Source: a virus
Taxonomy: Duplodnaviria > Caudoviricetes
DNA: 64,000 bases
Virus record (IMG/VR): IMGVR_UViG_3300026549_000036
Reading direction: 5' to 3' (one strand)
Shown here: in pieces, positions 11,804 to 54,267 of the stretch
How the letters are laid out: each line of letters opens with the position of its first letter
Position numbering within the stretch: position 1 is the stretch's first letter
Position numbers and translations under genes: made by a program
Notes under the pieces: model-generated
Database searches by the model: none
What the model was told of the DNA's origin: nothing
Seen by the model: the letters and a program-made list of their open reading frames with translations, nothing else

Positions 11804-13135
11804 ATGATTGGAAAGTTTACAGAATGGGTTAATGCTAATAATATACTAGACGAAGCAAATTTTATTGTTGATGTAAACAAGACTAAAGCTACTGACCACC
11901 ATTCACCAACTTATTTTGAGATAACATATCTTGATAAAATTAAGAAGATTTTGTTAGATGGAAAGCCAATTTTTCTTGACGTTCCAAAGAACATTACAAT
12001 AAATGATGTTACTACTGAAAAATATGATTATTTGACAATTAAAGATTTCAAAGCAAAAGATTTGGAAAAAGCAAAAACATATACTGATTTTTGTAATTCT
12101 TTAAATATGAAATCACAAAAGGTCAGAGCATTACATCTAAATCAAAGTAATTTCGTAAGTCATATTTGGAAAGGTTCTTTCAGTAATCGTGGTAATAGTT
12201 CATCTAAAGGTGGTGTTTTTGAAGTATTGCTTACTAGAGCACTTGAACAATACCAACAAGACCCAAAGAAAGTAGAAGCACGATATAAGACTGCTATTGA
12301 AAAAATCCTTAAAATTATTGGACTAAAAGACAAGTCTAAATTTAAGAAATGGGATGTTAAGAACAATGGTAACAACCGTTCTAAACGATTGAATTCTTTG
12401 TATGCTAATTTGGAATCAATATCTGATATTACCAAATTGGAATTTGAAGAAGAAGAGCATAACATTGGTAAGACAGTTTCCGATTTGATTATTACTGCCC
12501 CAAATGGTACTGAATTTTATTTGTCTTTGAAACACGGTAGCACAAATGAAATTGTAAACTTTGGCGCAGCTAAAATTAGAAAATCACTTGAACAACTTTA
12601 CAATGACTATGTGGCTAAAGGCGAAAAACCAAATTCTATTAACTCATTAGCTTCAACATTCTTAAAGAATTATTGTAAGGTATTTAACCTTAATCTTGCT
12701 AAATTGTTAGCAAGTTATGATTTGGTTAGTAATGATAAAGAGCCACAACTAAAAACATTTGATAAATTAAAGAACACTAAGTGCAGTAACAGTGGTGTTA
12801 TTTCCGAACAATTATCTAAACTAATTGCTTATTGTATCGGCTATGGTTACATTTATGTTCACGATACTGGTAAAGAAATTGAAGTCATTGACATAATGGA
12901 AAATGAAGATTTGGCAGAAATGATTAGAAAATACTCTGGTAACTATAATGTAAAATATGCTTGTGATACTGGTGCTAAAACTGTATTTGATTTTGACTTG
13001 TGCGACAAGAAAGATAAAAAAGACATTTTCATTCCACAGTCAAGATTTGAATTAAGACCAAATGCTGGTGCTGAAATTAACTTGTTCTCATTGAAGTTAA
13101 ATATAAACGCCTCCGAAATGGGTAATAATGGCTGA
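11804..13135 (+). CDS. PD-(D/E)XK-like nuclease-fold protein, probably late
   Basis: GGVFE ... VSDLII ... YLSLK; AATAAATA upstream. Confidence 0.5.
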   Translation: MIGKFTEWVNANNILDEANFIVDVNKTKATDHHSPTYFEITYLDKIKKILLDGKPIFLDVPKNITINDVTTEKYDYLTIKDFKAKDLEKAKTYTDFCNSLNMKSQKVRALHLNQSNFVSHIWKGSFSNRGNSSSKGGVFEVLLTRALEQYQQDPKKVEARYKTAIEKILKIIGLKDKSKFKKWDVKNNGNNRSKRLNSLYANLESISDITKLEFEEEEHNIGKTVSDLIITAPNGTEFYLSLKHGSTNEIVNFGAAKIRKSLEQLYNDYVAKGEKPNSINSLASTFLKNYCKVFNLNLAKLLASYDLVSNDKEPQLKTFDKLKNTKCSNSGVISEQLSKLIAYCIGYGYIYVHDTGKEIEVIDIMENEDLAEMIRKYSGNYNVKYACDTGAKTVFDFDLCDKKDKKDIFIPQSRFELRPNAGAEINLFSLKLNINASEMGNNG

Positions 13136-14000
13136 ATTAGATAAATTTTATACAAACAAAAATATAGCAAAAAATTGTGTAGAAACCCTACACAATTTTC
13201 TTGTCATTGACACAAACGATTGTTTTCTTGAACCTACGGCAGGTGACGGTGCGTTCCTTGATTATTTGACTAACTACGAAGCATACGATTTAAAACCCGA
13301 AGACCCTAGAGTTATTGAACAAGACATTTTTAAGTTCGTTCCTAATAGAACAAATTATATTACGATTGGAAACCCTCCATTCGGTAAGAGAAGCAAACTT
13401 GCTATTGATGTATTCAATACAGTAGCAAAGTATTCTGATGTAATTGCTTTCATTGTTCCAGTATCTTTCTTGAAATATAATGTTCAAAAAGAATTAGATA
13501 AAGATTTTAAACTTATACACAATTACATTCTTCCTGAAAATTCTTTCTTGGATAGAGGAAAAGTTTATGATGTGAACTGTGTATTCCAAATTTGGGTTAA
13601 GAGTGGAACAAAGTTTGATACTCACCCAAACATTAGATTGCTAGAAAGACCAAAGATTTCCTGTGACGATTTTAAGATATGGCAGTACAATGCGACAGAA
13701 AGTCAATTTAAAGTAGTCAATGAAGACTGGACTATTGCTGTGTATCGTCAAGGTTATAAAGATTACAAAAAGATTTTCACTCAAAAAGATAAAGCAACTG
13801 TGATTAGTGAAATGGATGGAAGTTCTACTGGCAAAAAAATTCAATTCTTTTTCATTAAGCCACTGAATGATACGGCAAAATCCATTATAAATAAAATTGA
13901 TTTTGAGAAGTTGGCTAACCGAAATACAAGTACTCCTGGGTTCGGAAAAGCCGATTTCGTAGATTATTATAATGAATTAAAACAGGAACTTGGTTCCTGA
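13128..14000 (+). CDS. N6-adenine DNA methyltransferase
   Basis: DKFYT, LEPTAGDGAF, GNPPFG, FIVP motifs. Confidence 0.9.
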   Translation: MAELDKFYTNKNIAKNCVETLHNFLVIDTNDCFLEPTAGDGAFLDYLTNYEAYDLKPEDPRVIEQDIFKFVPNRTNYITIGNPPFGKRSKLAIDVFNTVAKYSDVIAFIVPVSFLKYNVQKELDKDFKLIHNYILPENSFLDRGKVYDVNCVFQIWVKSGTKFDTHPNIRLLERPKISCDDFKIWQYNATESQFKVVNEDWTIAVYRQGYKDYKKIFTQKDKATVISEMDGSSTGKKIQFFFIKPLNDTAKSIINKIDFEKLANRNTSTPGFGKADFVDYYNELKQELGS

Positions 14001-14019
14001 AAATTTTTGAGGTGAATTT

Positions 14020-14815
14020 ATGATTAAACCAGATGTACATATAGAACTTTGGAACGCATTTAATGATATTAGTTTTAATGAACCAGACCACAAATATACA
14101 GATTCTAAAGGAACTTTGTATCAGTCCGCTACCGGTTGGATAAAACAATTTGAAGCAGATACCGATTGGGAAGAAATTAAGAAAAATAAAGCACAAAAAC
14201 TTGGTATTCCCGTAGAACAATTATCTAAAGAGTGGGAACGCAAAGGTGATTATGCAACTCATCTTCGGTACTCAAGTTCACGCAGTAATGGAATATGGGT
14301 GGCAGAAAAAGAACTATAATTTTGACAAGCGATTGAACAAAGATTTTCCTGAAATGGAAGAAGATTTCAACTACCGCAAAGGTGTATGTAAAGACATTAT
14401 GAATAAGATGAAAAAGATTTATGTACCTATTGCGAATGAATTTATTGTGTATGACCAGGAAAATGCTATATGTGGCACAATAGATGCAATAATGTATAAC
14501 ACTAAAAAAGATGTATTTAGTATCATTGACTGGAAAACATCAAAAAAATTTGACACCGGGAATCAATGGTCTGAATATATGAAAGACCCATTCAATCATG
14601 TTATTAACTGTAATACTTCACATTATTCTCTTCAGTTGTCATTGTACAAATACATTTTGGAAAAATATACTTCAATAAAAATTGGTGAACTTGTTTTATT
14701 TCAAATTCCTGGTAAAGAAAATCCAATGCCTCAAGTATTTCGCTGTTTAGATTTTAGTTCTCAAATTGCTAAATACTTTAATGATAAGAAAAAAGAGAAA
14801 GGACAGATAGGTTAA
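14020..14815 (+). CDS. PD-(D/E)XK (Cas4/RecB-like) exonuclease, +1 frameshift at CGG 14266
   Basis: Join gives GDYATHL-GTQVH...GTID...IIDWKT..QLSLY, about 264 aa. Confidence 0.85.
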
Positions 14816-14918
14816 TAATCTCACCTATTTGGGATAGTGTTTCCACCACTATCCCTAACTTTTATAAATATATTAGTCTATGTGGAAATGGACTATAAAC
14901 TATAAAGGAGATTATATG
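14798..14918 (+). promoter_or_regulatory. Structured RNA leader (3 hairpins, kissing loop, anti-SD) with TATAAATA late promoter at 14863
   Basis: Same architecture with covarying stems at 39329-39442. Confidence 0.75.
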
Positions 14919-15833
14919 TTTCATTGTGAAATTTGTCATAATGATTTTGTGAACATTCAATCATTTGCTCAGCATTTTAAGAAACACCATAATATAACAT
15001 ACGAACAGTATTTTGATGATTATATAGAACCAAATACTGACCATATTTGCCCGATATGTAAATTACACAAAAGAAAATTCTTTAAAGGTAAATATAGACA
15101 AACTTGTGGAAATCCAAATTGTCGTGCTAAGTGTATAACAAAAACTTGTATAGAACAAAATGGTGTTAATAATAATTTTTTGGTTAAAAATGAATGTGGT
15201 AAATGTAAAAGAGATATAACTAATAAAAAGAATACTGGTTATGAACATCCATTTCAAAACCCAAAAATACAAAATAAAGTAAAGAAATACAATAATGAAA
15301 AATATGGAACTGATTATCCATTAGAATCAAAAAAATATTGGGAAGAAAATAAATTATCAAATCCAATGCATAATCCTGATATAGTCAAAAAACTTATAGA
15401 AACAAGAAGAAAAAATGGGAATATAAGTAATAGTAAACGAATTTATTATAAAAATGAAAAATTTGATAGTAAATGGGAATTGGCATATTATATTTGGTTA
15501 GAAGATCATAACATTAAATTTACAAGAGAACCTTTATCTTTTGAATATAGTTATGACGATAAAATACATTATTATGTACCAGATTTTAAAATTGAAGATA
15601 AAATAATAGAAATTAAAGGTCTGCAATTTTTTGAAAATAATGACCCAACTAAAAGAATGATAAATCCCTATGACAGAACACAAGACGATTTATATGAAGC
15701 AAAACATCAATGTATGCTCAAAAATGAGGTAGAAATAATAACAGATTGTACTGAATATATAAATTATGTAGAAACTGTATATGGTAAAAATTATCTAGAC
15801 CAATTCATTAAAAGAAAAAGATTGAAAAAATAA
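14916..15833 (+). CDS. Free-standing homing-endonuclease-like protein (C2H2 Zn finger plus TnsA-like PD-(D/E)XK domain)
   Basis: CEIC..H..H; DSKWE; YVPDF..IEIKG; very AT-rich. Confidence 0.75.
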   Translation: MFHCEICHNDFVNIQSFAQHFKKHHNITYEQYFDDYIEPNTDHICPICKLHKRKFFKGKYRQTCGNPNCRAKCITKTCIEQNGVNNNFLVKNECGKCKRDITNKKNTGYEHPFQNPKIQNKVKKYNNEKYGTDYPLESKKYWEENKLSNPMHNPDIVKKLIETRRKNGNISNSKRIYYKNEKFDSKWELAYYIWLEDHNIKFTREPLSFEYSYDDKIHYYVPDFKIEDKIIEIKGLQFFENNDPTKRMINPYDRTQDDLYEAKHQCMLKNEVEIITDCTEYINYVETVYGKNYLDQFIKRKRLKK

Positions 15834-15856
15834 AGTACAATTTAAAATAATTATAA

Positions 15857-15896
15857 ATGGCGGTGTATTGACATCGCCATTTTCTTTTTGTATATT
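15857..15896 (+). promoter_or_regulatory. Hairpin-embedded sigma70-type promoter
   Basis: ATGGCGGTGT/ACATCGCCAT stem; TTGACA-N17-TATATT. Confidence 0.7.
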
Positions 15897-15903
15897 AGAT
15901 ATT

Positions 15904-16263
15904 ATGGAACTAAAAATTTATTATAAAACAGAAGATAGCGAAGCGTTCTATAAACGAACTTTGCCAGATGAAATTACTTCAATTAACTTGTATTTAAATG
16001 ATTCTGGTGGTGGTCAGATTGAATACTTATATCCACACCCGAATGATGGCAAAAAGATTTCAAGAAGTGATTGTTTGAGCTTTGCCGATGATGGTGTTAC
16101 CTATGTTGAAGTAAATGGAAAAGATAAATTCGTCCTCCGTAATAGAAAAGATTTTATAGCATTTTATAAGTATTTAACAGATTTTGATGTAGATAAGTTT
16201 ATAAAAGATTTTAAGGCTTTTGATAAAGAACAAAATATAAACGAGGACTTTGATGAAGATTGA
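15904..16263 (+). CDS. DF-tail family hypothetical protein
   Basis: Ends QNINEDFDED. Confidence 0.7.
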   Translation: MELKIYYKTEDSEAFYKRTLPDEITSINLYLNDSGGGQIEYLYPHPNDGKKISRSDCLSFADDGVTYVEVNGKDKFVLRNRKDFIAFYKYLTDFDVDKFIKDFKAFDKEQNINEDFDED

Positions 16264-16614
16264 ACAAATTATAACTGACACAACTAAACAATGGTCAGGC
16301 ATTAACTCCCTAATTATACCAGACAGAATCAATAAAATAAATTTATTTTTCTTCGGGATGATAATAAAGACACACTAGCACGATTGTTATTCTGCTATCC
16401 GATGATATGGAACCGTGGTGTTGGGAATAATACTGAAACAATAGACATTATGAAAGGTAGTTACATTGTTGTCAATGACAATAAGACATTTTATATGACT
16501 GACAAACAAGATGTAACTGAACTATACAGTTGGTTGACTGGTACTGATTTCAATAAACGAGTCAAAGAACTTAAAGAGTTCGGAAAGAAACAAAAGATTG
16601 CTAAGGATTTCTAA
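16253..16614 (+). pseudogene. DF-tail paralog of the preceding gene, split by a -1 frame break near 16346-16357
   Basis: PDRINKINLF aligns with PDEITSINLY upstream; continuation lies in the -1 frame. Confidence 0.6.
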
Positions 16615-17039
16615 TGAAAGATTGTAGATTTCTGTTGCCATTTGTAGATGAATTGCGTAAACTGTATCCTGACCATAAGATTGAATGGGTCAGAGATGAT
16701 ACCAATACTGAATACGAAAAGATAAACATTGATGATAAACCTTTCATTTATACAGAAATCGGCCATACAATAGATGAACTTGGTAAAGATAAAGTTGTTT
16801 CAGCAAGTATCGTTGTTGAATTTCAAAACTTATCTTCAGTTTCGGAATTTATGGGTTGGAGTATTGATGACCCCTATTCAGTTATGAATGAAAGAACTGT
16901 ACGATTATCATTGTTCAGTAATCATAAATGTTTAAGGGAAATCTTCAAATTTATTTTAACTGATAGTCCTGAATTAGTCCATAAGCAGATGGAAAATATA
17001 TACAGACTGAGTGAAATGGAAAGAGACTTTTATGAATAA
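16614..17039 (+). CDS. DF-tail family hypothetical protein
   Basis: Ends LSEMERDFYE. Confidence 0.7.
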   Translation: MKDCRFLLPFVDELRKLYPDHKIEWVRDDTNTEYEKINIDDKPFIYTEIGHTIDELGKDKVVSASIVVEFQNLSSVSEFMGWSIDDPYSVMNERTVRLSLFSNHKCLREIFKFILTDSPELVHKQMENIYRLSEMERDFYE

Positions 17040-17412
17040 AGAAGATTTATTTGCGAAAATGAAGTATAGATTAGGAGCTGCATATCCACAATTTACATTC
17101 ACTATTAAAGAAAATGCTTTAGTAATGAATAATAAAACTGCTGGTACTTTTATGGAAGCTCTTTCTGTACCAATACTTAGATATAATAAAGAAAGCGACA
17201 AAATGATATTGTCCTTTCCCAAGATTGTTAGCCCAGGTAAAAACACAAGTTCTCCTGGAAAAGAATATATAACACCCACTATTGACACCTACACCTTAGA
17301 TTACTATAATGTTAGTGAGAATCACATTGACTACATTGTAGAAAATTTGTTGTCAGGTGTTATCCAAAAAGAAGTTACAAAATACGAAAGTATGAAAAAG
17401 GATTTTGAATGA
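17032..17412 (+). CDS. DF-tail family hypothetical protein
   Basis: Ends YESMKKDFE. Confidence 0.7.
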   Translation: MNKEDLFAKMKYRLGAAYPQFTFTIKENALVMNNKTAGTFMEALSVPILRYNKESDKMILSFPKIVSPGKNTSSPGKEYITPTIDTYTLDYYNVSENHIDYIVENLLSGVIQKEVTKYESMKKDFE

Positions 17413-18281
17413 TAGAAGATTTTATTGATGAACAGAAAACTACGAAGGAAAAGGTTCTTTTGGTGGACCTTCATAATCTGAGTATGCGACATCTGTTCGC
17501 TCAAATTCCTGACCCAACTGACATATCTTACTCTGAATATAAAGTCGGGATGCTTATGAGTATTCGTAAACTGGCAAGAACATTTCAACCGGACAGAATT
17601 ATTTTCTGCCGAGAATCACACGATGGTAACTGGCGAAAATCTATCTACGCAGATTACAAAGGTAATCGTGCTGCGGCTAGAGAATCGTCAGTTATTGACT
17701 TTAATTCGTTTTTCCCAATTAACGAAAAATTTATTGAAGGACTTGAGAAATGTATGAAGAACTCTCAATTCTTGACTGTTCCACATTTAGAGGCAGATGA
17801 TTTGATTGCTCTAACTGTAATGAACGAACCTAATTGGGATATTACTTTAGTTTCAACAGATAAAGATTTCTACCAACTTCACGCTTACAAGAATTTCCAT
17901 CAGTGGGACCCGATTAAGGAAGAATACATACAAGTTATGAATCCTGAAGCCGCACTAATGGAAAAGATTGTTTTGGGCGACCGTGGTGATAACATTCCTT
18001 CATTAAAGAAAGGTGTTGGTACGAAAACCTTCGCTAAAATTTATAGTGAGGGCTTGAATGAATGGTTATCACTCAATATGCTTCAGGAATCATTTGACAG
18101 AAACACAAAACTCATTTCGTTTAGATGTATTCCTGAAGAATATAAATCTCAGGTCAAGAATATAATTGAAGACTTTGAGAAACAACCATTTGACGCCAGA
18201 GAATTTTTCAATTTCATTATTGGAGAAGGTCTCGGTGCGTTTATGGATAAAGCAACTGATTTTATTAACACTATGAAATAA
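17409..18281 (+). CDS. rnh: T4-type RNase H / 5'-3' flap exonuclease
   Basis: LLVD, WRK..Y.DYKGNR, EADD, STDKDF, GDRGDNIP. Confidence 0.92.
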   Translation: MIEDFIDEQKTTKEKVLLVDLHNLSMRHLFAQIPDPTDISYSEYKVGMLMSIRKLARTFQPDRIIFCRESHDGNWRKSIYADYKGNRAAARESSVIDFNSFFPINEKFIEGLEKCMKNSQFLTVPHLEADDLIALTVMNEPNWDITLVSTDKDFYQLHAYKNFHQWDPIKEEYIQVMNPEAALMEKIVLGDRGDNIPSLKKGVGTKTFAKIYSEGLNEWLSLNMLQESFDRNTKLISFRCIPEEYKSQVKNIIEDFEKQPFDAREFFNFIIGEGLGAFMDKATDFINTMK

Positions 18282-31013: not shown

Positions 31014-34000
31014 TGAACAGAAAAGAAATTCTTCAGTGTAGAGATTTTCTTAAAAGTCTCGGATTGACTCGTTGGAATGGGCGAGACTGGAAGTTTAATG
31101 ATAAACTAATCAACCCAAGTTATAAGATTATCTATGAATATGCTGGGACTTTCGTGATTTATACCCGAACTGAAGTAAGAAAATGGGATGGTAAGTACGA
31201 ATTGGTTACAAATTCTTGGTATGACTTTTCAGGAGATTTGGAAGAATTTAAGGTAGAAGTAAACAGTGCAGTTGAAAATTACAAGAAAGCAGCACAGAAA
31301 ATTAAAGAACTCAAAGCTCAAGAGGATTTTTAATGACTAAAAAAGATTACATTGCACTTGTTTATGAATTTGGTTTGTATTATGATGCTGATACTACTTC
31401 GGCATATTATAATGAATACCCGATTTGTGGTTACAGACCAGACCGGTCAAATTTCGGAACTAACGATTGGAGTTCAAAAATTTTAATTATTTTTGAAAAT
31501 TATACTGATAATCTTAACGAATACGGACACTATTCTGGTGTATATCAGGACAAATTTGCTACTAAAGTAGAAGAAGCTCGTCAGTTGATTTCAAATCAAA
31601 TTGTTTCTATTAAAAACAAGTACATAAATGCCCGATTGGAAAAAATGGAAAAGGATTTTTGATGAGAAAGAAAGATATTTTAAACATTTGCGACCAACTT
31701 GGAATTACTTATCAAGCTCAACCAGGTTTCCAAAACGAATCTTTATTCTATAAGGATTTTTATGTTGGTAGTATTGACAAGTTCGGAAGAAAGTATTCTA
31801 TCTATATGAGCCACGTCCCTAAAGAGATTGACGAAGGTGGATTGTTGGAAACTAAAGATAAAATAATTGCCGCATTGAATTTCAAAATCAAGTCCGCAAA
31901 GGAATTTGAAGCATTGAGGCGACAAGTGGAAATGGAGAAAGATTTTGAATAAGCAAATAGAACCAATTAAACAGATTGCGACTGAACTCGGTATCATTTT
32001 TGAAGATGATACTAAGGGTTGGCAGTGTTCAGTCAAAATTCCGTCTGCATATTATGTGACAGATGGTGATTATATTGAAGACCCAAGCACAATTTATATT
32101 TTCCGTTATGACGAAGAACGAATTACAGATTGTTTGTGTTTCACTAATCTAATTTTTGATACTGAACATAATAACAAACTAATTTGGGTAGGACACGATA
32201 ATTATGACCCAGTAATAAAAACCCCCAATTATAAAGAAATTAAACAAACATTAACCAAGTGCCTGAAAGAGTTGAAAGAAAAAGAAGAACAACTTAAAAT
32301 CAAAAACTTAGAAAAGGATTTTCAATGATAATGATACTAAATTTAACATTAGCATTTTTTGGTTTTGTAATCATTATCGCAGCCATTCTTGCCTTAAAAG
32401 GAATGATGAAGGTTAATGATTACAAAGTTAAGCCTTATGACAATACAATTTATCCAAGTCAAGCAGTTGAAATTGCTAAAAAATTAGCCGCATACAAAAC
32501 AAATTTCACTCGTTTTCCTGAACAAACGGCTACAAATGAAATTGAATTTATAGATACGAAAAATGTTGTGATTTTGAAAGTTTCTAAGGTATCGTGTTAT
32601 AGTTATATAACTGGAATTAAGAACCATCAGGGTTATCTGTATTCCATAATAAAAGATTATGTTGTTCTCAAAAGTTATACTTCGCTTGACGAATGTATGA
32701 GAGATTACCAGCAAAATTATTGTTTGTTTGTAAAGAAAATCAAAATTGCAGACAGACTTAAAAGTTTACAAGAGGATTTCTAATGAACAAAAAATATGAA
32801 ACAATGGCAAAGTTCAATATGTCAATGGTTCGCTATTTCGCAGATAAGTGTGGAACTGTTGGCCTGTATGATACTTACGATTGTAATTTTAGACCATTGG
32901 ATTTTAGTCAGTCCGATTTAAATTTATGGAAAATAATTGCTGCGTTTAGTAGTGATAATGACTTTGAGAATTTTCGTATTGTTCCAGAACAATATGCGAT
33001 TGAAAGAGTTAATAATTACTCAGCATATCAACTGGAAAAATACAAAAAACCAGTTTTGATTTTCAAACGAATTAACAATAATAACTGTGATTGGGAAATG
33101 TTAATGCAGATTACCAAGCCGGCTTTACTTTGTCAATACATAGATGGTGTAAAATATGCTTATGGATTGTCTGCTCAGGGAACTCCACTCCAGCTTGGTG
33201 TGCTGAACACTAGAGATGATTTTGATTGTTTCAAACGCAGATATACAGAAATAGAAAAACAAGTAGAAAGCAATTTTAAAGAACTTGAACGATATAAGTT
33301 GCTCAAAAAGCAATACGAAGAAAAAATTAGACTAATGAGAATGTCAGATGACTTTTGATGAATACTACAATTTGATGGACAAATACGGAATTGAAGTAGA
33401 CGCAGATTTGTATCTGTGTTATAGAAATTATTTGCTGGGTAGAATTGAAACAGACACAACTTATGAAGACCCAAATCGTAATGTTGCTTTTATTACTTAT
33501 AATAACAATGGAAAGCCGATGCGACTGTTAAATCCTATCGCAATAGATAATTTGTTAAAACACAGAACATTGGAAATAAAGAAGCAAAATGTAAAAGATA
33601 AAATAAATAAACTGAATGAGGACTTTGTATGAATGGTGTTGATTTTGAAAATTTTTATAAGAAATTTAATTTGAAATGGGACTTTCTTAATACAAATAAT
33701 TTTGAAACCAATTTACTTTATAGAGATAAATTTGTGTGTTCATATTACAAGAACCCCGAATCAGGTGAACGATTTATCCGATTTCCAGGTAAATGGTGGG
33801 CAGTTTCAAACTATAAAAAAGCTTGCGAATGTTTTGAAACATACTGCCGAAAGACAATAAAAGAGATTGACGAATTTTATAAACTGAGACGAATTAAAGA
33901 GGATTTTGAATGACACAAGCAGAACTTGTAACATTATGTAAATCACTTGGTTTCTGTGGTGAGCCAGGCAGATGTGTAAGAGGTTCATATTATGCTAATT

Positions 34001-38190: not shown

Positions 38191-39329
38191 ATTTCTTAAC
38201 ATTTTAATTCCACGGAATCTTCTTGCCAACCTGTCTTGGCACAGTTTATAACTATTCTCAATATGCTAAAAACATAATGGAATGGTTTGATATAAGTAAA
38301 TTCTCAACTGACATTGGTTTTACTTTAATCATTTTCTTCCTGGGTATGGGTGCTGCCACTTTTGGTAGAATGGTAGAACTTAACCCTAAACGAATGGCTT
38401 GTATCAGTACCATATTGTTCTTTATTGGTATGATACTTGTTTTCTGTTCGCTCCAATTCCACTTGTTACCACTGTATTATGTTGGGTGTTCCTTTATGGG
38501 ATGTGGTACTGGTATTGGTTATGTTTCACCTATTAAGCAGTTGCTCAGTAATTTCGCAGATCATAAAGGTTTAGCATCTGGTTTGGCTATTACTGGTTTT
38601 GGATTGGGTAAGTTCGTAGCTGCTCCAGCCATTGAGTATTTGCTTACGGCTGTATCTCTACCTACTATGTTCCTTGTCCTTGCTGTGGCATTCCTGCTCA
38701 TTATGAGTGTATGTTCGTGGTTGTTTAAACCAAATCCAGCGTTCATTTCTACGGTCTATACTGCTATCCCTATTAGCACTCTAGTTAAGTACACATTCCT
38801 AACAAAGCAATATATTTCTGTATGGTTAATGTTCTGTATTAACATATCCTGTGGGTTGGCAATTATTTCGCAGGAGAAAGGATTGCTTACAGGACTTGGT
38901 TTTAAAGAAATCGCAACAATTATGAGTTTGACTGCCGTATTCAACATTCTCGGTAGATTTGGTATGAGTACTGTGAGCGATAAAATCGGAAGAAAGTGTA
39001 CTTACCATTATATTTGTAGTATAGGTATTATTGGTGCTTTCTTATGTTATACACAATTTGCTTGGCCCGCATTATTTGGTATTTTACTCATTGAATTTGC
39101 TTATGGTGGCAATTTTTCTACTTTGCCAAGTTTATTATCTAAATACTTTGGAGAAAATTGTGTTTCAACTGTACATGCTATGACTTTATCTGGATGGGGT
39201 ATTGCAGGAATAATAGGTCCTGTATTAGCAAATATATTTACTGGTACAAATCTATATTTAGTTTTAGCTGGTCTATATTTTATTGGTTTTTTTGGTATGA
39301 CTATATGTTTAAAATCAAAAGAAACATAA
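38174..39329 (+). CDS. MFS transporter (OFA-like), +1 frameshift at CGG 38213
   Basis: Join MTKINRFLNILIP-GIFLPTCLGTVY restores TM1; KGLASGLAITGFG, SDKIGR. Confidence 0.85.
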
Positions 39330-39442
39330 AAGGACAGGTGCTTCCTCCGTGGCACTTGGTGGATGTTACAGCATCCACCTAACTTTTATAAATATATTGT
39401 AGACTGTAATCTACATTAACATTTTTAACGGAGAATAATATG
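39329..39442 (+). promoter_or_regulatory. Second copy of the structured leader, TATAAATA at 39387
   Basis: Covarying stems relative to the 14798 copy. Confidence 0.75.
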
Positions 39443-40549
39443 AATGGCACAATAATATGTAAAATTTGTGGTCAGCCCTTTAAAACATATTGGGCTTTAA
39501 GTAAACATATAACAGATAAACACAATATATCAAAACAAGAATATTACGATAAATATTTTAAAAAACCTGGTGAAGGACTTTGTTATATATGTGGTAATAC
39601 AACAAAATTTTTAGGCAAAATTAATTATGGATATAATAAATTTTGTTGTAAAGAATGTTATAAACTTTATATGTCAAAAACAAATAGTAGTGAAACGTAT
39701 AAACAAAAAGTAAGAAAAACATTAAAAGAAAAATATGGTGAAGATGTAGAAAATGCTTTTCAATTAAAAATTGTTAAAGAAAAAATTGAAAATACATGTT
39801 TACAAAAATTTGGTGTAAAATATGCAACTCAATCTGATAAAATGAAAGAAAATAGTAAAAAAACTAAACTAGAAAAATATAATAATGAAAATTATACAAA
39901 TCGTGAAAAAGCATTAAAAACTTGTGAAGAAAAATATGGAAACAAATATTGGAATAATAGTGAACAAAATAAAATAACTTGTTTTGAAAAATATGGTGAA
40001 ACAAATCCAATGAAAGTTCAAGAAATAAAAGAAAATTTCTTTAAAAAATATAAAGAAAAAACAGGATATGATACACCATTTAATAATCCTAAAGTTATAG
40101 AAAAACGAAAAGAAAATTATTATAATAAAACAGGATATTATTATAATTCACAAAATCCAGAAGTTCATAAAAAACAAATGTGTTGTCGTTATACAGCACC
40201 TAATGGTAAAAATTATGATAGTAGCTGGGAATATAAATTTGAACAATATTTAATTGAAAGTAAGATACAATATGAATATCAACCAAATATAACTTTTAAA
40301 TGGATTGATTTCGAAGGTATTGAAAGAACTTATCTACCAGATTTTAAATTAATATATCCAGATGGTAAAGTAGAAATTGTTGAAATAAAAGGAGACCAAT
40401 TTTTTGATAAAGAAAATAATTATATAGATCCGCACGATAAAACTGAAATAGGACTATTTAATGCCAAACAAAAATATAATTGTATGATTGATAATGGTAT
40501 TAAAATACTTAGAAGAACAGATCTTAAATTATTAGGAATAAAATTATAA
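39440..40549 (+). CDS. Free-standing homing-endonuclease-like protein
   Basis: CKIC..H..H, KYG repeats, DSSWE, YLPDF..VEIKG; paralog of 14916. Confidence 0.75.
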   Translation: MNGTIICKICGQPFKTYWALSKHITDKHNISKQEYYDKYFKKPGEGLCYICGNTTKFLGKINYGYNKFCCKECYKLYMSKTNSSETYKQKVRKTLKEKYGEDVENAFQLKIVKEKIENTCLQKFGVKYATQSDKMKENSKKTKLEKYNNENYTNREKALKTCEEKYGNKYWNNSEQNKITCFEKYGETNPMKVQEIKENFFKKYKEKTGYDTPFNNPKVIEKRKENYYNKTGYYYNSQNPEVHKKQMCCRYTAPNGKNYDSSWEYKFEQYLIESKIQYEYQPNITFKWIDFEGIERTYLPDFKLIYPDGKVEIVEIKGDQFFDKENNYIDPHDKTEIGLFNAKQKYNCMIDNGIKILRRTDLKLLGIKL

Positions 40550-43220: not shown

Positions 43221-43604
43221 ATGTATAAACTTAGAGATTTAAATACTATGGGCTACAAAGAAATTATAAAGTATCTTGACGATTTTCCATTCCTTCACAA
43301 GCAAGAATATAGTGAAGGTTCAGTTGCGTATGAAATCGTAACTAAAACTATGTATCCTGAAGACGATGATTTACCGACAGAAAACACAGCTAGAGCAATT
43401 ACCATTGACCGATATGGACTTACTTGTCGCAGACTTATGGTTATGAATGGTCTGATTTATGCTAGAGAAGAACTTGAAGTAAATAATCTTACAGAACTGA
43501 AAAATTATTTGGTTGAAGTTGAAGAAGAAATTAAACGATATAGTAAACTGTATAAACAGGCTATGGTTGATTATAAACTAAACAAAATGAAGGAAGATTT
43601 TTAA
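43221..43604 (+). CDS. DF-tail family hypothetical protein
   Basis: Ends KLNKMKEDF. Confidence 0.7.
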   Translation: MYKLRDLNTMGYKEIIKYLDDFPFLHKQEYSEGSVAYEIVTKTMYPEDDDLPTENTARAITIDRYGLTCRRLMVMNGLIYAREELEVNNLTELKNYLVEVEEEIKRYSKLYKQAMVDYKLNKMKEDF

Positions 43605-44077
43605 TGATTTATATTGACTTTTTCATAAAAGAATCACAAGAAAGACATTTTTATAAGTTTGAAGGCGATAGTTTTGAGATTACAGAACTTCATATCGGCA
43701 GAAACAATTATGAATGGACTGGTAGTGAACGAAACGAAACTCACACAATTCCAATAAGGTTTACAATGAAAACTAATCTTGGTGAAATCCATAGTTTTGA
43801 AATTGACTGTTGTTATACAGAAGGAACAGATTGGAATCATAAAAAATACAGAAATTACAAAATGACCCATTTTTGTATATTGGACGAAAAAGATGGTTTG
43901 TATGTTGTAGCTGACGAATATGACGAAGAAAGTCACGAATGGAAAACAGACTATGAGTTCCAAAATAAAATTGCAGAATACTTTAATAGTAAAATCCAAA
44001 ACGATACAGATTTAATTAAAAAACGATATAAAGAAATAAAGAAATTGGATAAAATGCATTCAGATTTTGCAGATTAG
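43604..44077 (+). CDS. DF-tail family hypothetical protein
   Basis: Ends KLDKMHSDFAD. Confidence 0.7.
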   Translation: MIYIDFFIKESQERHFYKFEGDSFEITELHIGRNNYEWTGSERNETHTIPIRFTMKTNLGEIHSFEIDCCYTEGTDWNHKKYRNYKMTHFCILDEKDGLYVVADEYDEESHEWKTDYEFQNKIAEYFNSKIQNDTDLIKKRYKEIKKLDKMHSDFAD

Positions 44078-44122: not shown

Positions 44123-44520
44123 GATACTGACATTAGTGAAAAGTCCCGTTCCTCGGAGCGAACAGCAACTCAATGTGAGTATCGGTAGAGGGCGGGCCAT
44201 TCTATAAATCCAAGGTTGTTTATAGATTAAGAGAATCGTTCTTATGAAACCGAATGATGAGCGAGTAGCGACCGCTCAATATGCCGTCATGCGTTTTATT
44301 GAATAAAGCCCAGGTACAGGATGACCGCCTGGTAAGTCAATTTGTAAAATCGCCTGCAAACCGACGAGCGACAGTCAAAACAAAAATGATTGTCAAACAG
44401 AAGTTCGTGCTTGTCTAAAATAGGCAAGCACCCTCCGAAGCTCCATATCAAACAAAAATTAAATCATCAATAAAATAATTGTTTCCGAAGGAAACAACGA
44501 AATTTCAAAGAAATTTCGTT
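44123..44520 (+). ncRNA. Unidentified highly structured non-coding element (ncRNA or replication origin)
   Basis: ORF-free, GC-elevated, about 10 hairpins, TATATT just upstream; strand inferred. Confidence 0.55.
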
Positions 44521-44546: not shown

Positions 44547-46142
44547 ATGGATCCTAGAATTAAATTTCTTGAAGATAAATTAAAATACTTACAAGGACAA
44601 CTTACAGCTAATCTATTCAATAGACAGACACAAACATTAGTTTATCATAATTTAAATGATGAAGTTAATCATGTGACTAATAGAATAAGACATTATCTAG
44701 TTCATTTACATACAAAATGTGAATCAATGGATGATTTTATTAAATACTGTAAAGAAGTAGATAATGAATTTGAAGATGCAGGACAAGAACATTTATTTTG
44801 TACTGAATTTGACATTCCATATACAGGTAAATTAGACAAAAGTGTTTTAATACATTTTAAGACTGGAATGGCAACTAGAATTAGAGAGATAAATTCATTA
44901 CATATTGAAAAGAACAGACTGTATATTAACGGGCAGAAAGTAGCACAGGACATTCGTAGATTTATCTTTGTAGATAAAGCATTTGAATTGGATAAAAACG
45001 ATGAAACAGAATTTAATGAACTGATTGAACATTTTAAGTCTCTTAAAGAAAGACTTAAGTTACAGAACATTGGAGAAGATTTCAAATGACATTTTGTCAA
45101 TATGCGCTTATAAAAGCACAATATGAAATGGTAGAACAACACGATAATTTACAGTTATGTTTTTGTGCGGATAGAGATTGTACTGACCACGTTTGGCAAG
45201 CTCCATTGAGCATTAAAGAAGAACCAAAGGCTAGTAATGCATTTTATGTTTTAATGATTCCAAAGGGACTTGATTTCACAGAAGAAACATACGAAACTTA
45301 TAAAGGATTTTTTGAAAGATATATAAAGCGTGAAAAAGAAAAAGAAAAACTTGAGCGAATAAAGAAGGACTTTGTATGAGATTACTATTTGAAAATGACG
45401 AACTTGATAATTTGATACGCAAGTATCATTTGATGGTTTATTTTAGTTATGGTAATGATTATTGTTTATGTTTTGAAGGAGATGGTCCTTCTAGTTTCAT
45501 AGGAGCATATAGTAGATACGGTGGTAAAGTATATTTGTTTGACAGTATACATTTAAAACACGATAAAATAGTAGGTGATAAAAATAAAAGACACACTTAT
45601 ATAGAAGTTGAACCATTTGAAAAACATTTAAATAAACTTATAATACAGCGTAAGAGAATACTTGCGGAACAAAGAGAACGCAAAATGAAAAAGGATTTCA
45701 AATGACTTTTGATGAAGTAGATAAAATAATTTGTTCGTATGGATTTTATAAGTATTGTTATGACCAGGAAGAAAGTAGCACAGCTAAGTATTATATGTAC
45801 CCTGGAATAGATAGATTAGCAGTTTATACTGAAAATTTATGCGAACAAAATTATAATAGTTTAGATAAAAAACATTTCAGTGAAAAAGATTTGAACCGAG
45901 TAGATTTAGTTACATTTTCGCCGATTGTATTATGGAGTACTGGTGAGATTGGTATAAATTATGCTATTGAATCATTAAGATTGTGGAGAAAAAATATACA
46001 CACTACATCTTTTAAATTGACTGAAGAACGATTACACAAAGAACTAAAAAATTTTAAATTAAGTCTTGAATCTTTGTTACAAGAACAAAAAGTTGCTAAA
46101 ATGAATAAGAAATTAGAAAATATGGAGAATGATTTTGACTGA
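44547..46142 (+). other. Four coupled DF-tail ORFs (44547-45089, 45086-45379, 45376-45705, 45702-46142)
   Basis: End IGEDFK, IKKDFV, MKKDFK, MENDFD. Confidence 0.75.
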
Positions 46143-48728: not shown

Positions 48729-48750
48729 ATTTTATTCATTACTGCTCCTT

Positions 48751-48790
48751 CTAGGGTCCCCTTCTTGGGGACCCTAGTTTTTTATAAATA
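48751..48790 (+). terminator. Terminator running into a TATAAATA late promoter
   Basis: CTAGGGTCCC/GGGACCCTAG, T-run, TATAAATA at 48783. Confidence 0.8.
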
Positions 48791-48816
48791 CATTATAGAA
48801 TTTAATGAGGTTTTTA

Positions 48817-53554: not shown

Positions 53555-53959
53555 ATGCTCCGAGAAACACGAAAATACCTTGAAGAAAATTTTGAGACCG
53601 AAGAACTGTTATGCGGTAACAAAGTTTTCCAAAAACGATTCTCCGGTTATTGGAAAATCGTTTTAAACAAGTATTGGGTTGATATAATAATGGATGAAAT
53701 GTTTGAGAAGTATATGTTAAGACCACCAAAAGATAGAAATGATGTGGCTTTAGCAAAAACTGTTCTTACTTTATATGCGACATATAGTAAGAAAATGGTC
53801 AGTAAATTGAAGACAGAAAAAATTAAACCAAAAAATCTAAATCTCAAACAAATTACTATATTAGTAAATGAGGTGCGAGACTTGGATGCTGAGTTTTCCA
53901 ATGATATGAAAAGACTTTTAACAATTCATCGCACATACAAATTAAATGAGGATTTTTAA
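53555..53959 (+). CDS. DF-tail family hypothetical protein
   Basis: Ends YKLNEDF. Confidence 0.7.
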   Translation: MLRETRKYLEENFETEELLCGNKVFQKRFSGYWKIVLNKYWVDIIMDEMFEKYMLRPPKDRNDVALAKTVLTLYATYSKKMVSKLKTEKIKPKNLNLKQITILVNEVRDLDAEFSNDMKRLLTIHRTYKLNEDF

Positions 53960-54267
53960 TGAACGATAAAGAAATGTTTTTACCAACAGACGAAGCAAAA
54001 GCAGCAGACATTAGAAATATGGATCCGCTAGAAGCAATTAAAGCTGCTGCCGAAGGCATTGGGTTGATTTTGAATGACCCAAATCCTAACTGTAAGAAGT
54101 GCCACGGAAGAGGGTTTATCGGTCGCCACGCAGATACTGGTGAACCAATAGCTTGTTCGTGTTTATTCCCAAAATATGAATCTGCTAGAGAAACTGGAGA
54201 AATAATTTTACCACAGAACCGTGCTCAGCGTAGAGCAGCAAAAAAGAAGGCAAAGAAAAATGGCTAA
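53959..54267 (+). CDS. Zinc-binding hypothetical protein
   Basis: CKKCHGRG...ACSC; basic NRAQRR tail. Confidence 0.65.
   Translation: MNDKEMFLPTDEAKAADIRNMDPLEAIKAAAEGIGLILNDPNPNCKKCHGRGFIGRHADTGEPIACSCLFPKYESARETGEIILPQNRAQRRAAKKKAKKNG

Follow-up and report, generated by a model that had tools for sequence, protein, structure and literature searches.

Homing endonucleases need to be silenced without harm to the genes that adjoin them, and to our knowledge the only worked-out solution is that of the T-even phages, a simple hairpin with an internal late promoter. An RBS-sequestering structure with an embedded late promoter has been established experimentally for I-TevI, I-TevII, I-TevIII, segB and mobE of phage Aeh1, the last of which also has an upstream terminator (PMC2988022). 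With the anti-SD upstream of the late promoter and the SD downstream of it, long transcripts are closed and late transcripts are open (PMC2988022). A second point of comparison is provided by the PeSL cassettes of T4-like phages, composites of a terminator and an early promoter. These short conserved modules of stem-loop and promoter are found at the borders of variable genes and are associated with the modular exchange of genes (PMC2839356, PMC4122927).

The leader described here was found in a stretch of 64,000 nt from an uncultured giant rumen phage (Duplodnaviria; Caudoviricetes; IMG/VR record IMGVR_UViG_3300026549_000036), referred to below as the window. Like the T-even genes and mobE of the Aeromonas phage Aeh1, it has an anti-SD upstream of its own putative late promoter and the SD downstream (PMC2988022). 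The T-even structures are single local stem-loops, whereas here the anti-SD is displayed in the apical loop of a hairpin of its own, in a loop-to-strand arrangement, and the promoter is spanned by a second contact, a covarying kiss between two loops. In further contrast to the T-even systems, a single conserved modular family, in about 40 designs, precedes nucleases of two unrelated families in uncultured jumbo phages. The sequence-only reading of this locus had called the arrangement more elaborate than the simple RBS hairpin of T4, which is borne out by the loop-presented anti-SD and the additional loop-loop contact; we regard the leader as a topologically more elaborate form of a known control principle, with a function that is presumed accordingly from its layout. 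The leader shares its short stem-loop and promoter makeup, its position at variable-gene borders and its association with modular gene exchange with PeSL, but the latter carry early promoters, with no reported pairing to an RBS or hairpin downstream, while the leader has a late-type box and two long-range pairings (PMC2839356, PMC4122927). No sigma-70-like site above background was detected in the leader when both window copies were scanned. The PeSL cassettes are the nearest modular analogue, and the leader appears to lack the sigma-70 early promoter by which they are recognised.

The first copy of the leader occupies positions 14798–14918 of the window, on the plus strand throughout. Its 5′ edge is an SD-like AAAGGA motif (14798–14803), which together with the next three bases makes up a conserved 9-mer that opens the leader. 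Hairpin 1 (14804–14831) has nine base pairs, one of them G.U, and a 10-nt loop (14813–14822); the base of the stem is formed by C-G, A-U and G.U pairs, and bases 14815–14822 of the loop constitute the anti-SD/anti-spacer. The same loop contains the stop codon (14813–14815) of the upstream PD-(D/E)XK gene. Hairpin 2 (14832–14854) has a G+C-rich stem of 8 bp and a 7-nt loop (14840–14846). A conserved 19-mer follows (14856–14874), containing a T4-type late promoter box, TATAAATA, at 14863–14870, and then hairpin 3 (14874–14895, loop 14881–14888). The translation start region (14907–14918) consists of the SD, GGAG (14907–14910), a spacer and the ATG at 14916. Loop 2 has its exact complement at 14882–14888 in loop 3, the seventh pair of this helix being in competition with the U-A pair that closes hairpin 3; bases 14815–14822 of loop 1 are exactly complementary to 14908–14915, that is, to the last three bases of the SD and the spacer. 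The sequence-only reading had placed the AAAGGA motif, the three hairpins, the RBS and both exact complementarities where they are found here. Its stem 2 has to be amended: the hairpin is present, but the first G assigned to it (14831) is already the last G of stem 1, leaving eight pairs when stem 1 is closed. The leader is followed by a homing-endonuclease-like ORF of 305 aa (ORF 1, 14916–15833, plus strand), which contains DUF7487, has a weak match to Phage_endo_I and belongs to phrog_3339; it also matches PHROG families annotated ‘homing endonuclease’.

A second copy, whose existence that reading implied, is located at 39329–39442, again on the plus strand. The first A of its AAAGGA motif (39329–39334) is the last base of the stop codon of an MFS gene. 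Hairpin 1 (39335–39358) carries the anti-SD at 39345–39350, and hairpin 2 (39359–39378) has a 6-nt loop at 39366–39371. The 19-mer (39380–39398, with TATAAATA at 39387–39394) is identical to that of copy 1. In hairpin 3 (39398–39415) the loop, 39404–39409, is the exact complement of loop 2, and in the SD and start codon region (39428–39442, ATG at 39440) bases 39428–39433 pair with loop 1. The ORF (ORF 2, 39440–40549, plus strand; 369 aa) is homing-endonuclease-like and paralogous to ORF 1, with an N-terminal C2H2-like finger and DUF7487. The only elements common to both window copies are the 5′ 9-mer, the TTG that closes hairpin 1, the 19-mer and GGAGA; the stems and loops differ, and loop 2 is complementary to loop 3, and loop 1 to the SD, in both. 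A search for direct repeats in the window missed the relation between the copies, since the conserved blocks are only 9 nt and 19 nt long. RNAfold z-scores for hairpins 1 and 2 together are −3.8 and −3.3 for the two copies, and the minimum-free-energy fold of copy 2 (RNAfold) itself contains the long-range helix between loop 1 and the SD. The MFS transporter gene directly upstream of the second cassette (38223–39329, plus strand; MFS_1, E = 2e-23) is unusual as an auxiliary gene in a phage.

Pattern scans, a covariance model (CM) and protein-based fetching together yielded about 70 further copies, representing about 40 designs, in phage contigs from rumen, sludge and fermenter; hairpin 3 and the RBS were never part of any pattern-scan query. 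A scan of viral contigs for the exact 19-mer returned two further leaders, one of them with wholly different stems and loops. A scan that required the 5′ 9-mer and the promoter and left all sequence beyond the promoter free gave about 20 leaders, and a metagenome scan with the pattern gave many more. After parsing, 68 members were retained, with 28 distinct hairpin 2 apexes and 38 distinct loop 1 sequences. When a MAFFT alignment was analysed with RNAalifold, hairpins 1 and 2 emerged, 11 of their 14 pairs showing compensatory changes, but hairpin 3 was misaligned, and the CM was therefore built from a cleaner seed of 14 sequences, comprising the three hairpins only and no loop-loop helix. It matches exactly two sites in the window and one in the nearest virus record compared (G001), and recovers one member missed by the text patterns. 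A first endonuclease protein alignment was too diverse for locus fetching; among 76 loci eventually fetched by endonuclease homology alone, 20 matched the CM.

Divergent variants have lost much of the conserved sequence and kept both pairings. Some are without the 9-mer, some have the anti-SD in a linear stretch or a short hairpin, and some carry new loop codes. Their promoter box reads TGTAAATA in one case and is degenerate in another, three divergent copies in all being off-consensus. The AAAGGA motif shows no variation across the CM alignment of the family, and the GGACA core of the 5′ motif is retained even in the divergent variants.

A search of Rfam 15 gave no match above noise over either window copy, and blastn of the leader against GenBank phages gave no match; we found no paper combining these features of the leader. 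Cultured relatives of the endonuclease in Ackermannviridae (phages PC3 and maane) are without the leader, the CM has no match in Lak-A2 or in an uncultured 462-kb phage, and no tractable cultured carrier was found. The leader is also absent from a complete 424-kb phage (G002), although the 19-mer promoter and a gp55-like gene are present there. Genome sizes of about 335–410 kb for the leader-bearing contigs are implied by their CheckV completeness. The leader is a real, strongly covarying RNA family that is absent from Rfam. The sole Rfam match in the window is elsewhere, to RF02947, the cow-rumen-2 RNA (44252–44357, plus strand; 78.3 bits, gathering score 66), in the gap between the ORFs at 43604–44077 and 44547–45089; this orphan rumen RNA motif is phage-borne here.

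Both long-range complementarities hold across the family. In 26 of the 28 distinct designs of hairpin 2, the apex has a complementary run of at least 6 nt within its own 45 nt after the promoter (median 7), compared with 20 of 756 pairs (2.6%) when loops of one design were matched to the downstream region of another. For loop 1 and its own 22 nt before the ATG, the corresponding figures are 36 of 38 (median 7) and 140 of 1406 swapped pairs (10%). The exceptions are truncated remnants that have no normal ORF (L089, L097, L179 and L188) and one design with just a 4-bp, G+C-rich match. The complementarity of loops 2 and 3 spans more than 20 different sequences.

Covariation was assessed in a CM alignment of 62 distinct sequences. 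The helices of hairpins 1, 2 and 3 are 99.2%, 99.8% and 93.0% paired, respectively, with compensatory changes in five of eight pairs of hairpin 1 and covariation in all eight pairs of hairpin 2; comparison across the family strengthens the three covarying hairpins of the sequence-only reading. In the loop 2:loop 3 helix, which is outside the model, 91.6% of cells are paired, compared with 72.8 ± 1.6% in shuffles, none of 500 being as high. Five of its six pairs show double-sided changes, which occupy 59 cells as opposed to 20.6 in shuffles, and the covariation score is 0.348, against at most 0.034 in slid controls. An individual pair may occur, for example, as GC (21), CG (13), AU (7) and UA (3). 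The building of a CM and its application to phage contigs, together with a search of Rfam, had been suggested as the means of checking the proposal; the further copies keep the loop-loop complementarity, and Rfam holds no matching family. Chance complementarity is ruled out by the folding z-scores, the swapped controls, the shuffles and the slid controls. The third pair of hairpin 1 is G.U in 62 of 62 sequences and G.U pairs occur in the kiss as well, which places the constraint on the sense-strand RNA and not on the DNA.

Nearly all copies have the box TATAAATA between hairpins 2 and 3. This 8-mer is identical to the gp55-recognised late promoter of T4 and is positioned, as there, 25–50 nt before the start codon; among related contigs, three of the five viral ones that bear the leader encode a late sigma factor of the gp55 type (phrog_234). 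In G001, at 56% completeness, neither the T4 gp55 protein nor phrog_234 found a match. The leader differs from the T4 promoter in an extended upstream context, CTAACTT and a T-run, which is absent at the other TATAAATA sites of the window. All eight occurrences of the box in the window are on the gene strand, as are 18 in G001, where three are on the other strand; half of the gene-strand boxes in the window and G001 fall within the 15% of non-coding sequence. Several are situated just after terminator hairpins and 15–35 nt before an SD-ATG. The claim that a late promoter lies between stems 2 and 3 is indirectly supported by the position of the box, the strand bias and the gp55-type genes, and from these we infer that the promoter is active and that it acts late. 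Hairpin 3 begins 0–5 nt after the box. Since the box adjoins it and a T4-like start would be about 6 nt downstream, hairpin 3 would be at the extreme 5′ end of the late RNA; in copy 1 the expected start, about 6 nt after the box, is in the 5′ arm of hairpin 3. On the other side of the box, hairpin 2 has a G+C-rich stem and passes a lenient terminator scan in both window copies, with a T-run that starts 4–5 nt past the stem and is interrupted in many copies; it looks like a weak terminator.

Two other occurrences of the box in the window may be mentioned. At 48742–48790 a strong terminator hairpin is followed at once by TATAAATA, 22 nt before the ATG at 48805, and the same composite is present in G001; it looks like a generic terminator/late-promoter joint of this phage group. 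Another box lies 33 nt before a large ORF (59686–63999, plus strand) of more than 1427 aa with cadherin-type repeats, which runs off the window and is probably a late adhesin or fibre gene.

G001 is 94–95% identical to the window over 12500–14758 and 15844–17500. Between these blocks the window has 1085 nt (14759–15843, plus strand), containing the leader and ORF 1, where G001 has 42 nt. Since G001 is without the copy 1 leader and the ORF together, the leader belongs to a mobile cassette. On the left, the cassette joins its flank at the conserved 9-mer, and the upstream nuclease gene had its C-terminus rewritten by the insertion. Family members begin where the upstream gene ends, at its stop codon, and in about 22 of 50 contexts the A's of this codon, a UAA, are shared with the 5′ motif. 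The upstream genes are of a replication and nucleotide-metabolism type: they include NrdD, directly in front of several independent cassettes, a T4 gp32-like SSB, which adjoins one cassette, dUTPase and others. DUF7487 is found in 28 of the 40 leader-driven ORFs, with or without a zinc finger (phrog_3339/12131, annotated ‘homing endonuclease’), with weak Phage_endo_I and TnsA-like matches; the other ORFs that could be placed, five in number, are HNH/NUMOD3 (phrog_655). The leader would accordingly serve two unrelated nuclease families, both predicted to be homing endonucleases. Its membership of the cassette, its use by two nuclease families, its start at the upstream stop codon and the resemblance of hairpin 2 to a weak terminator had all escaped the sequence-only reading.

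Some leader-driven ORFs are longer, about 570–595 aa (L026:8372-10159, L080:662-2434, L180:5593-7287 and L030:9283-10983). They have an N-terminal part of the DUF7487 type and a C-terminal region with weak matches to the N6_N4 DNA methylase family and to phrog_12517, and may be nuclease-methylase fusions. G001 has a leader copy of its own (G001:C1:184573-184760; L115 / L244:4573-4666), which is intact with matched loops; the ORF that follows has just 60 aa and similarity to the endonuclease resumes about 600 nt further on, so that here the leader has apparently survived in front of a disrupted nuclease gene. A different kind of gene border recurs more than 15 times in the window, where small genes end in ...EDF* and the next SD (GAGGA) and ATG overlap the stop codon (TAATG), for example at 24512–24547, 31304–31339, 43575–43610 and 53930–53965. 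The pattern suggests either a standard joint for translational coupling or a set of small paralogous genes.

We propose that the leader controls a free-standing homing-endonuclease cassette from its front end, the cassette being inserted directly behind an earlier-expressed phage gene. Transcription of the upstream gene would continue into the cassette, with some transcripts perhaps halted at hairpin 2. On the read-through RNA hairpins 1 and 2 would fold first; once hairpin 3 and the RBS emerge, loop 3 would kiss loop 2 through 6–7 bp, holding the SD and spacer near loop 1. Loop 1 would then pair with the SD and spacer (6–10 bp), masking the RBS and preventing synthesis of the nuclease. Late transcription would be started by a gp55-type sigma factor at TATAAATA, between hairpins 2 and 3. 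The resulting RNA would begin in the 5′ arm of hairpin 3 and lack both locking loops, leaving the RBS free and the nuclease to be translated. While the structure, the two covarying complementarities, the mobility of the cassette and the identity of the promoter motif are observed, read-through, the timing of expression, the transcription start and the effect on translation are presumed from them. A lock of this kind in cis, blocking the RBS on read-through RNA and freeing it on late RNA as the sequence-only reading had it, is in our judgement the probable function of the leader.

The calculated energies are consistent with such a lock. Median duplex energies are −10.2 kcal/mol for loop 1:SD and −8.7 kcal/mol for loop 2:loop 3. 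In a nested-only partition function, which is blind to both long-range contacts as long as the hairpins are closed, 43 of 53 copies have a less accessible RBS in the read-through than in the late RNA (median 0.39 vs 0.55). For the two window copies this nested-only proxy shows no difference in accessibility (0.49 vs 0.49 and 0.64 vs 0.61), and their case therefore rests on the pseudoknotted pairings. This counts against the lock, as does the absence of a gp55 match from the 56%-complete G001. Further, a pairing of 8 nt within a loop of 8–10 nt is sterically demanding; if hairpin 2 is an efficient terminator there will be little read-through RNA, and a lock in cis matters less; and the conserved 5′ motif plays no part in the model. 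The SD-like 9-mer might be a site of ribosome release or standby, or one for an RNase.

The same loops could be used between two molecules. Kissing in trans is familiar from OxyS-fhlA, ColE1 RNA I/RNA II and TAR-TAR*, in which loops of 6–7 nt are fully complementary, as they are here, with one contact on the RBS and a second elsewhere. The leader differs in that both partners are on one read-through transcript, although a trans mode is possible for it too. The upstream RNA would in that event end at or after hairpin 2, through termination or processing, giving a stable 3′ fragment with loops 1 and 2, which would bind the late endonuclease mRNA at loop 3 and the RBS and throttle its translation in the manner of a two-site antisense RNA. 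Hairpins 1 and 2 would then amount to an address-coded riboregulator, through which the 3′ end of the upstream mRNA represses in trans, by a kiss at two sites, the late mRNA of its own cassette only. Both the fragment and its proposed action seem to us rather unlikely, and the same low probability attaches to the address-coded riboregulator; locks in cis and in trans are mutually compatible. Hairpin 2 passes the terminator scan, but with a U-tract that is interrupted and 4–5 nt off the stem termination is probably weak. Fully complementary sequences of 6–7 nt presented in loops are typical antisense nucleation sites, yet the contact in cis is kinetically favoured whenever read-through occurs. 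Each cassette has its own loop code in contigs with several cassettes (the window, L079, L176 and L123), a diversity that is also expected from drift and compensation. Three remnants (L089, L179 and L188) have kept hairpins 1 and 2 and the promoter and have neither hairpin 3 nor an ORF, as would suit a trans-acting fragment. If the address-coded reading were true, the output of each selfish nuclease would be tied to the expression of the essential gene that it parasitises, and the diversity of loop codes would be selected orthogonality and not drift.

The lock in cis has also to be set against a role at the level of DNA, in which the leader blocks would supply homology for swapping endonuclease genes from site to site, in the manner of the PeSL cassettes, and the RNA pairings would be secondary. 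Near-identical leaders (97%, 94% and 98%) do stand before unrelated ORFs (17–23% protein identity), and homologous ORFs are found with different leaders. The identities of leader and ORF are in this way uncoupled, which makes the leader a module in its own right. The presence and absence of the cassette in otherwise near-identical genomes points the same way. Recombination fails to account for the invariant G.U or for a complementarity that is kept up over more than 20 changes of sequence; as a replacement for the lock we consider it improbable, more so than the trans mode, and we see in it a further property of the leader rather than an alternative to the lock.

It is very improbable that loops 2 and 3 are half-sites of an inverted-repeat operator flanking the promoter, which would co-vary with the specificity of a binding protein such as an autorepressing endonuclease. 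There is a precedent in I-TevI, which binds an operator overlapping its late promoter (PMC2988022), and many of the ORFs have an N-terminal zinc finger. However, endonucleases of unrelated families share one loop code, identical leaders precede different ORFs, the would-be half-sites are always in the loops of covarying hairpins, and their spacing varies. Since unrelated nucleases have a loop code in common and G.U is tolerated in the kiss, this reading was rejected. Separate functions without long-range pairing, with hairpins 1 and 2 as tandem terminators or 3′ stabilisers and hairpin 3 as a 5′ stabiliser, are barely credible and tandem terminators alone were rejected, for although hairpin 2 is terminator-like and hairpin 3 would be at the very 5′ end of the late RNA, the loop-loop covariation and the match of loop 1 to the RBS over about 40 designs cannot be incidental.

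The leader adds a well-supported structured-RNA family, which comprises about 70 copies and has a kissing helix that covaries, to those known. It indicates that uncultured jumbo phages possess a portable, standardised RNA module with two covarying tertiary contacts, which is reused by unrelated nuclease families at many genomic sites. If it acts in cis as proposed, it would be a natural example of a programmable two-key translational lock. The module also provides a sequence signature by which mobile nuclease cassettes and late promoters may be located in metagenomic phage genomes that are otherwise unannotated.
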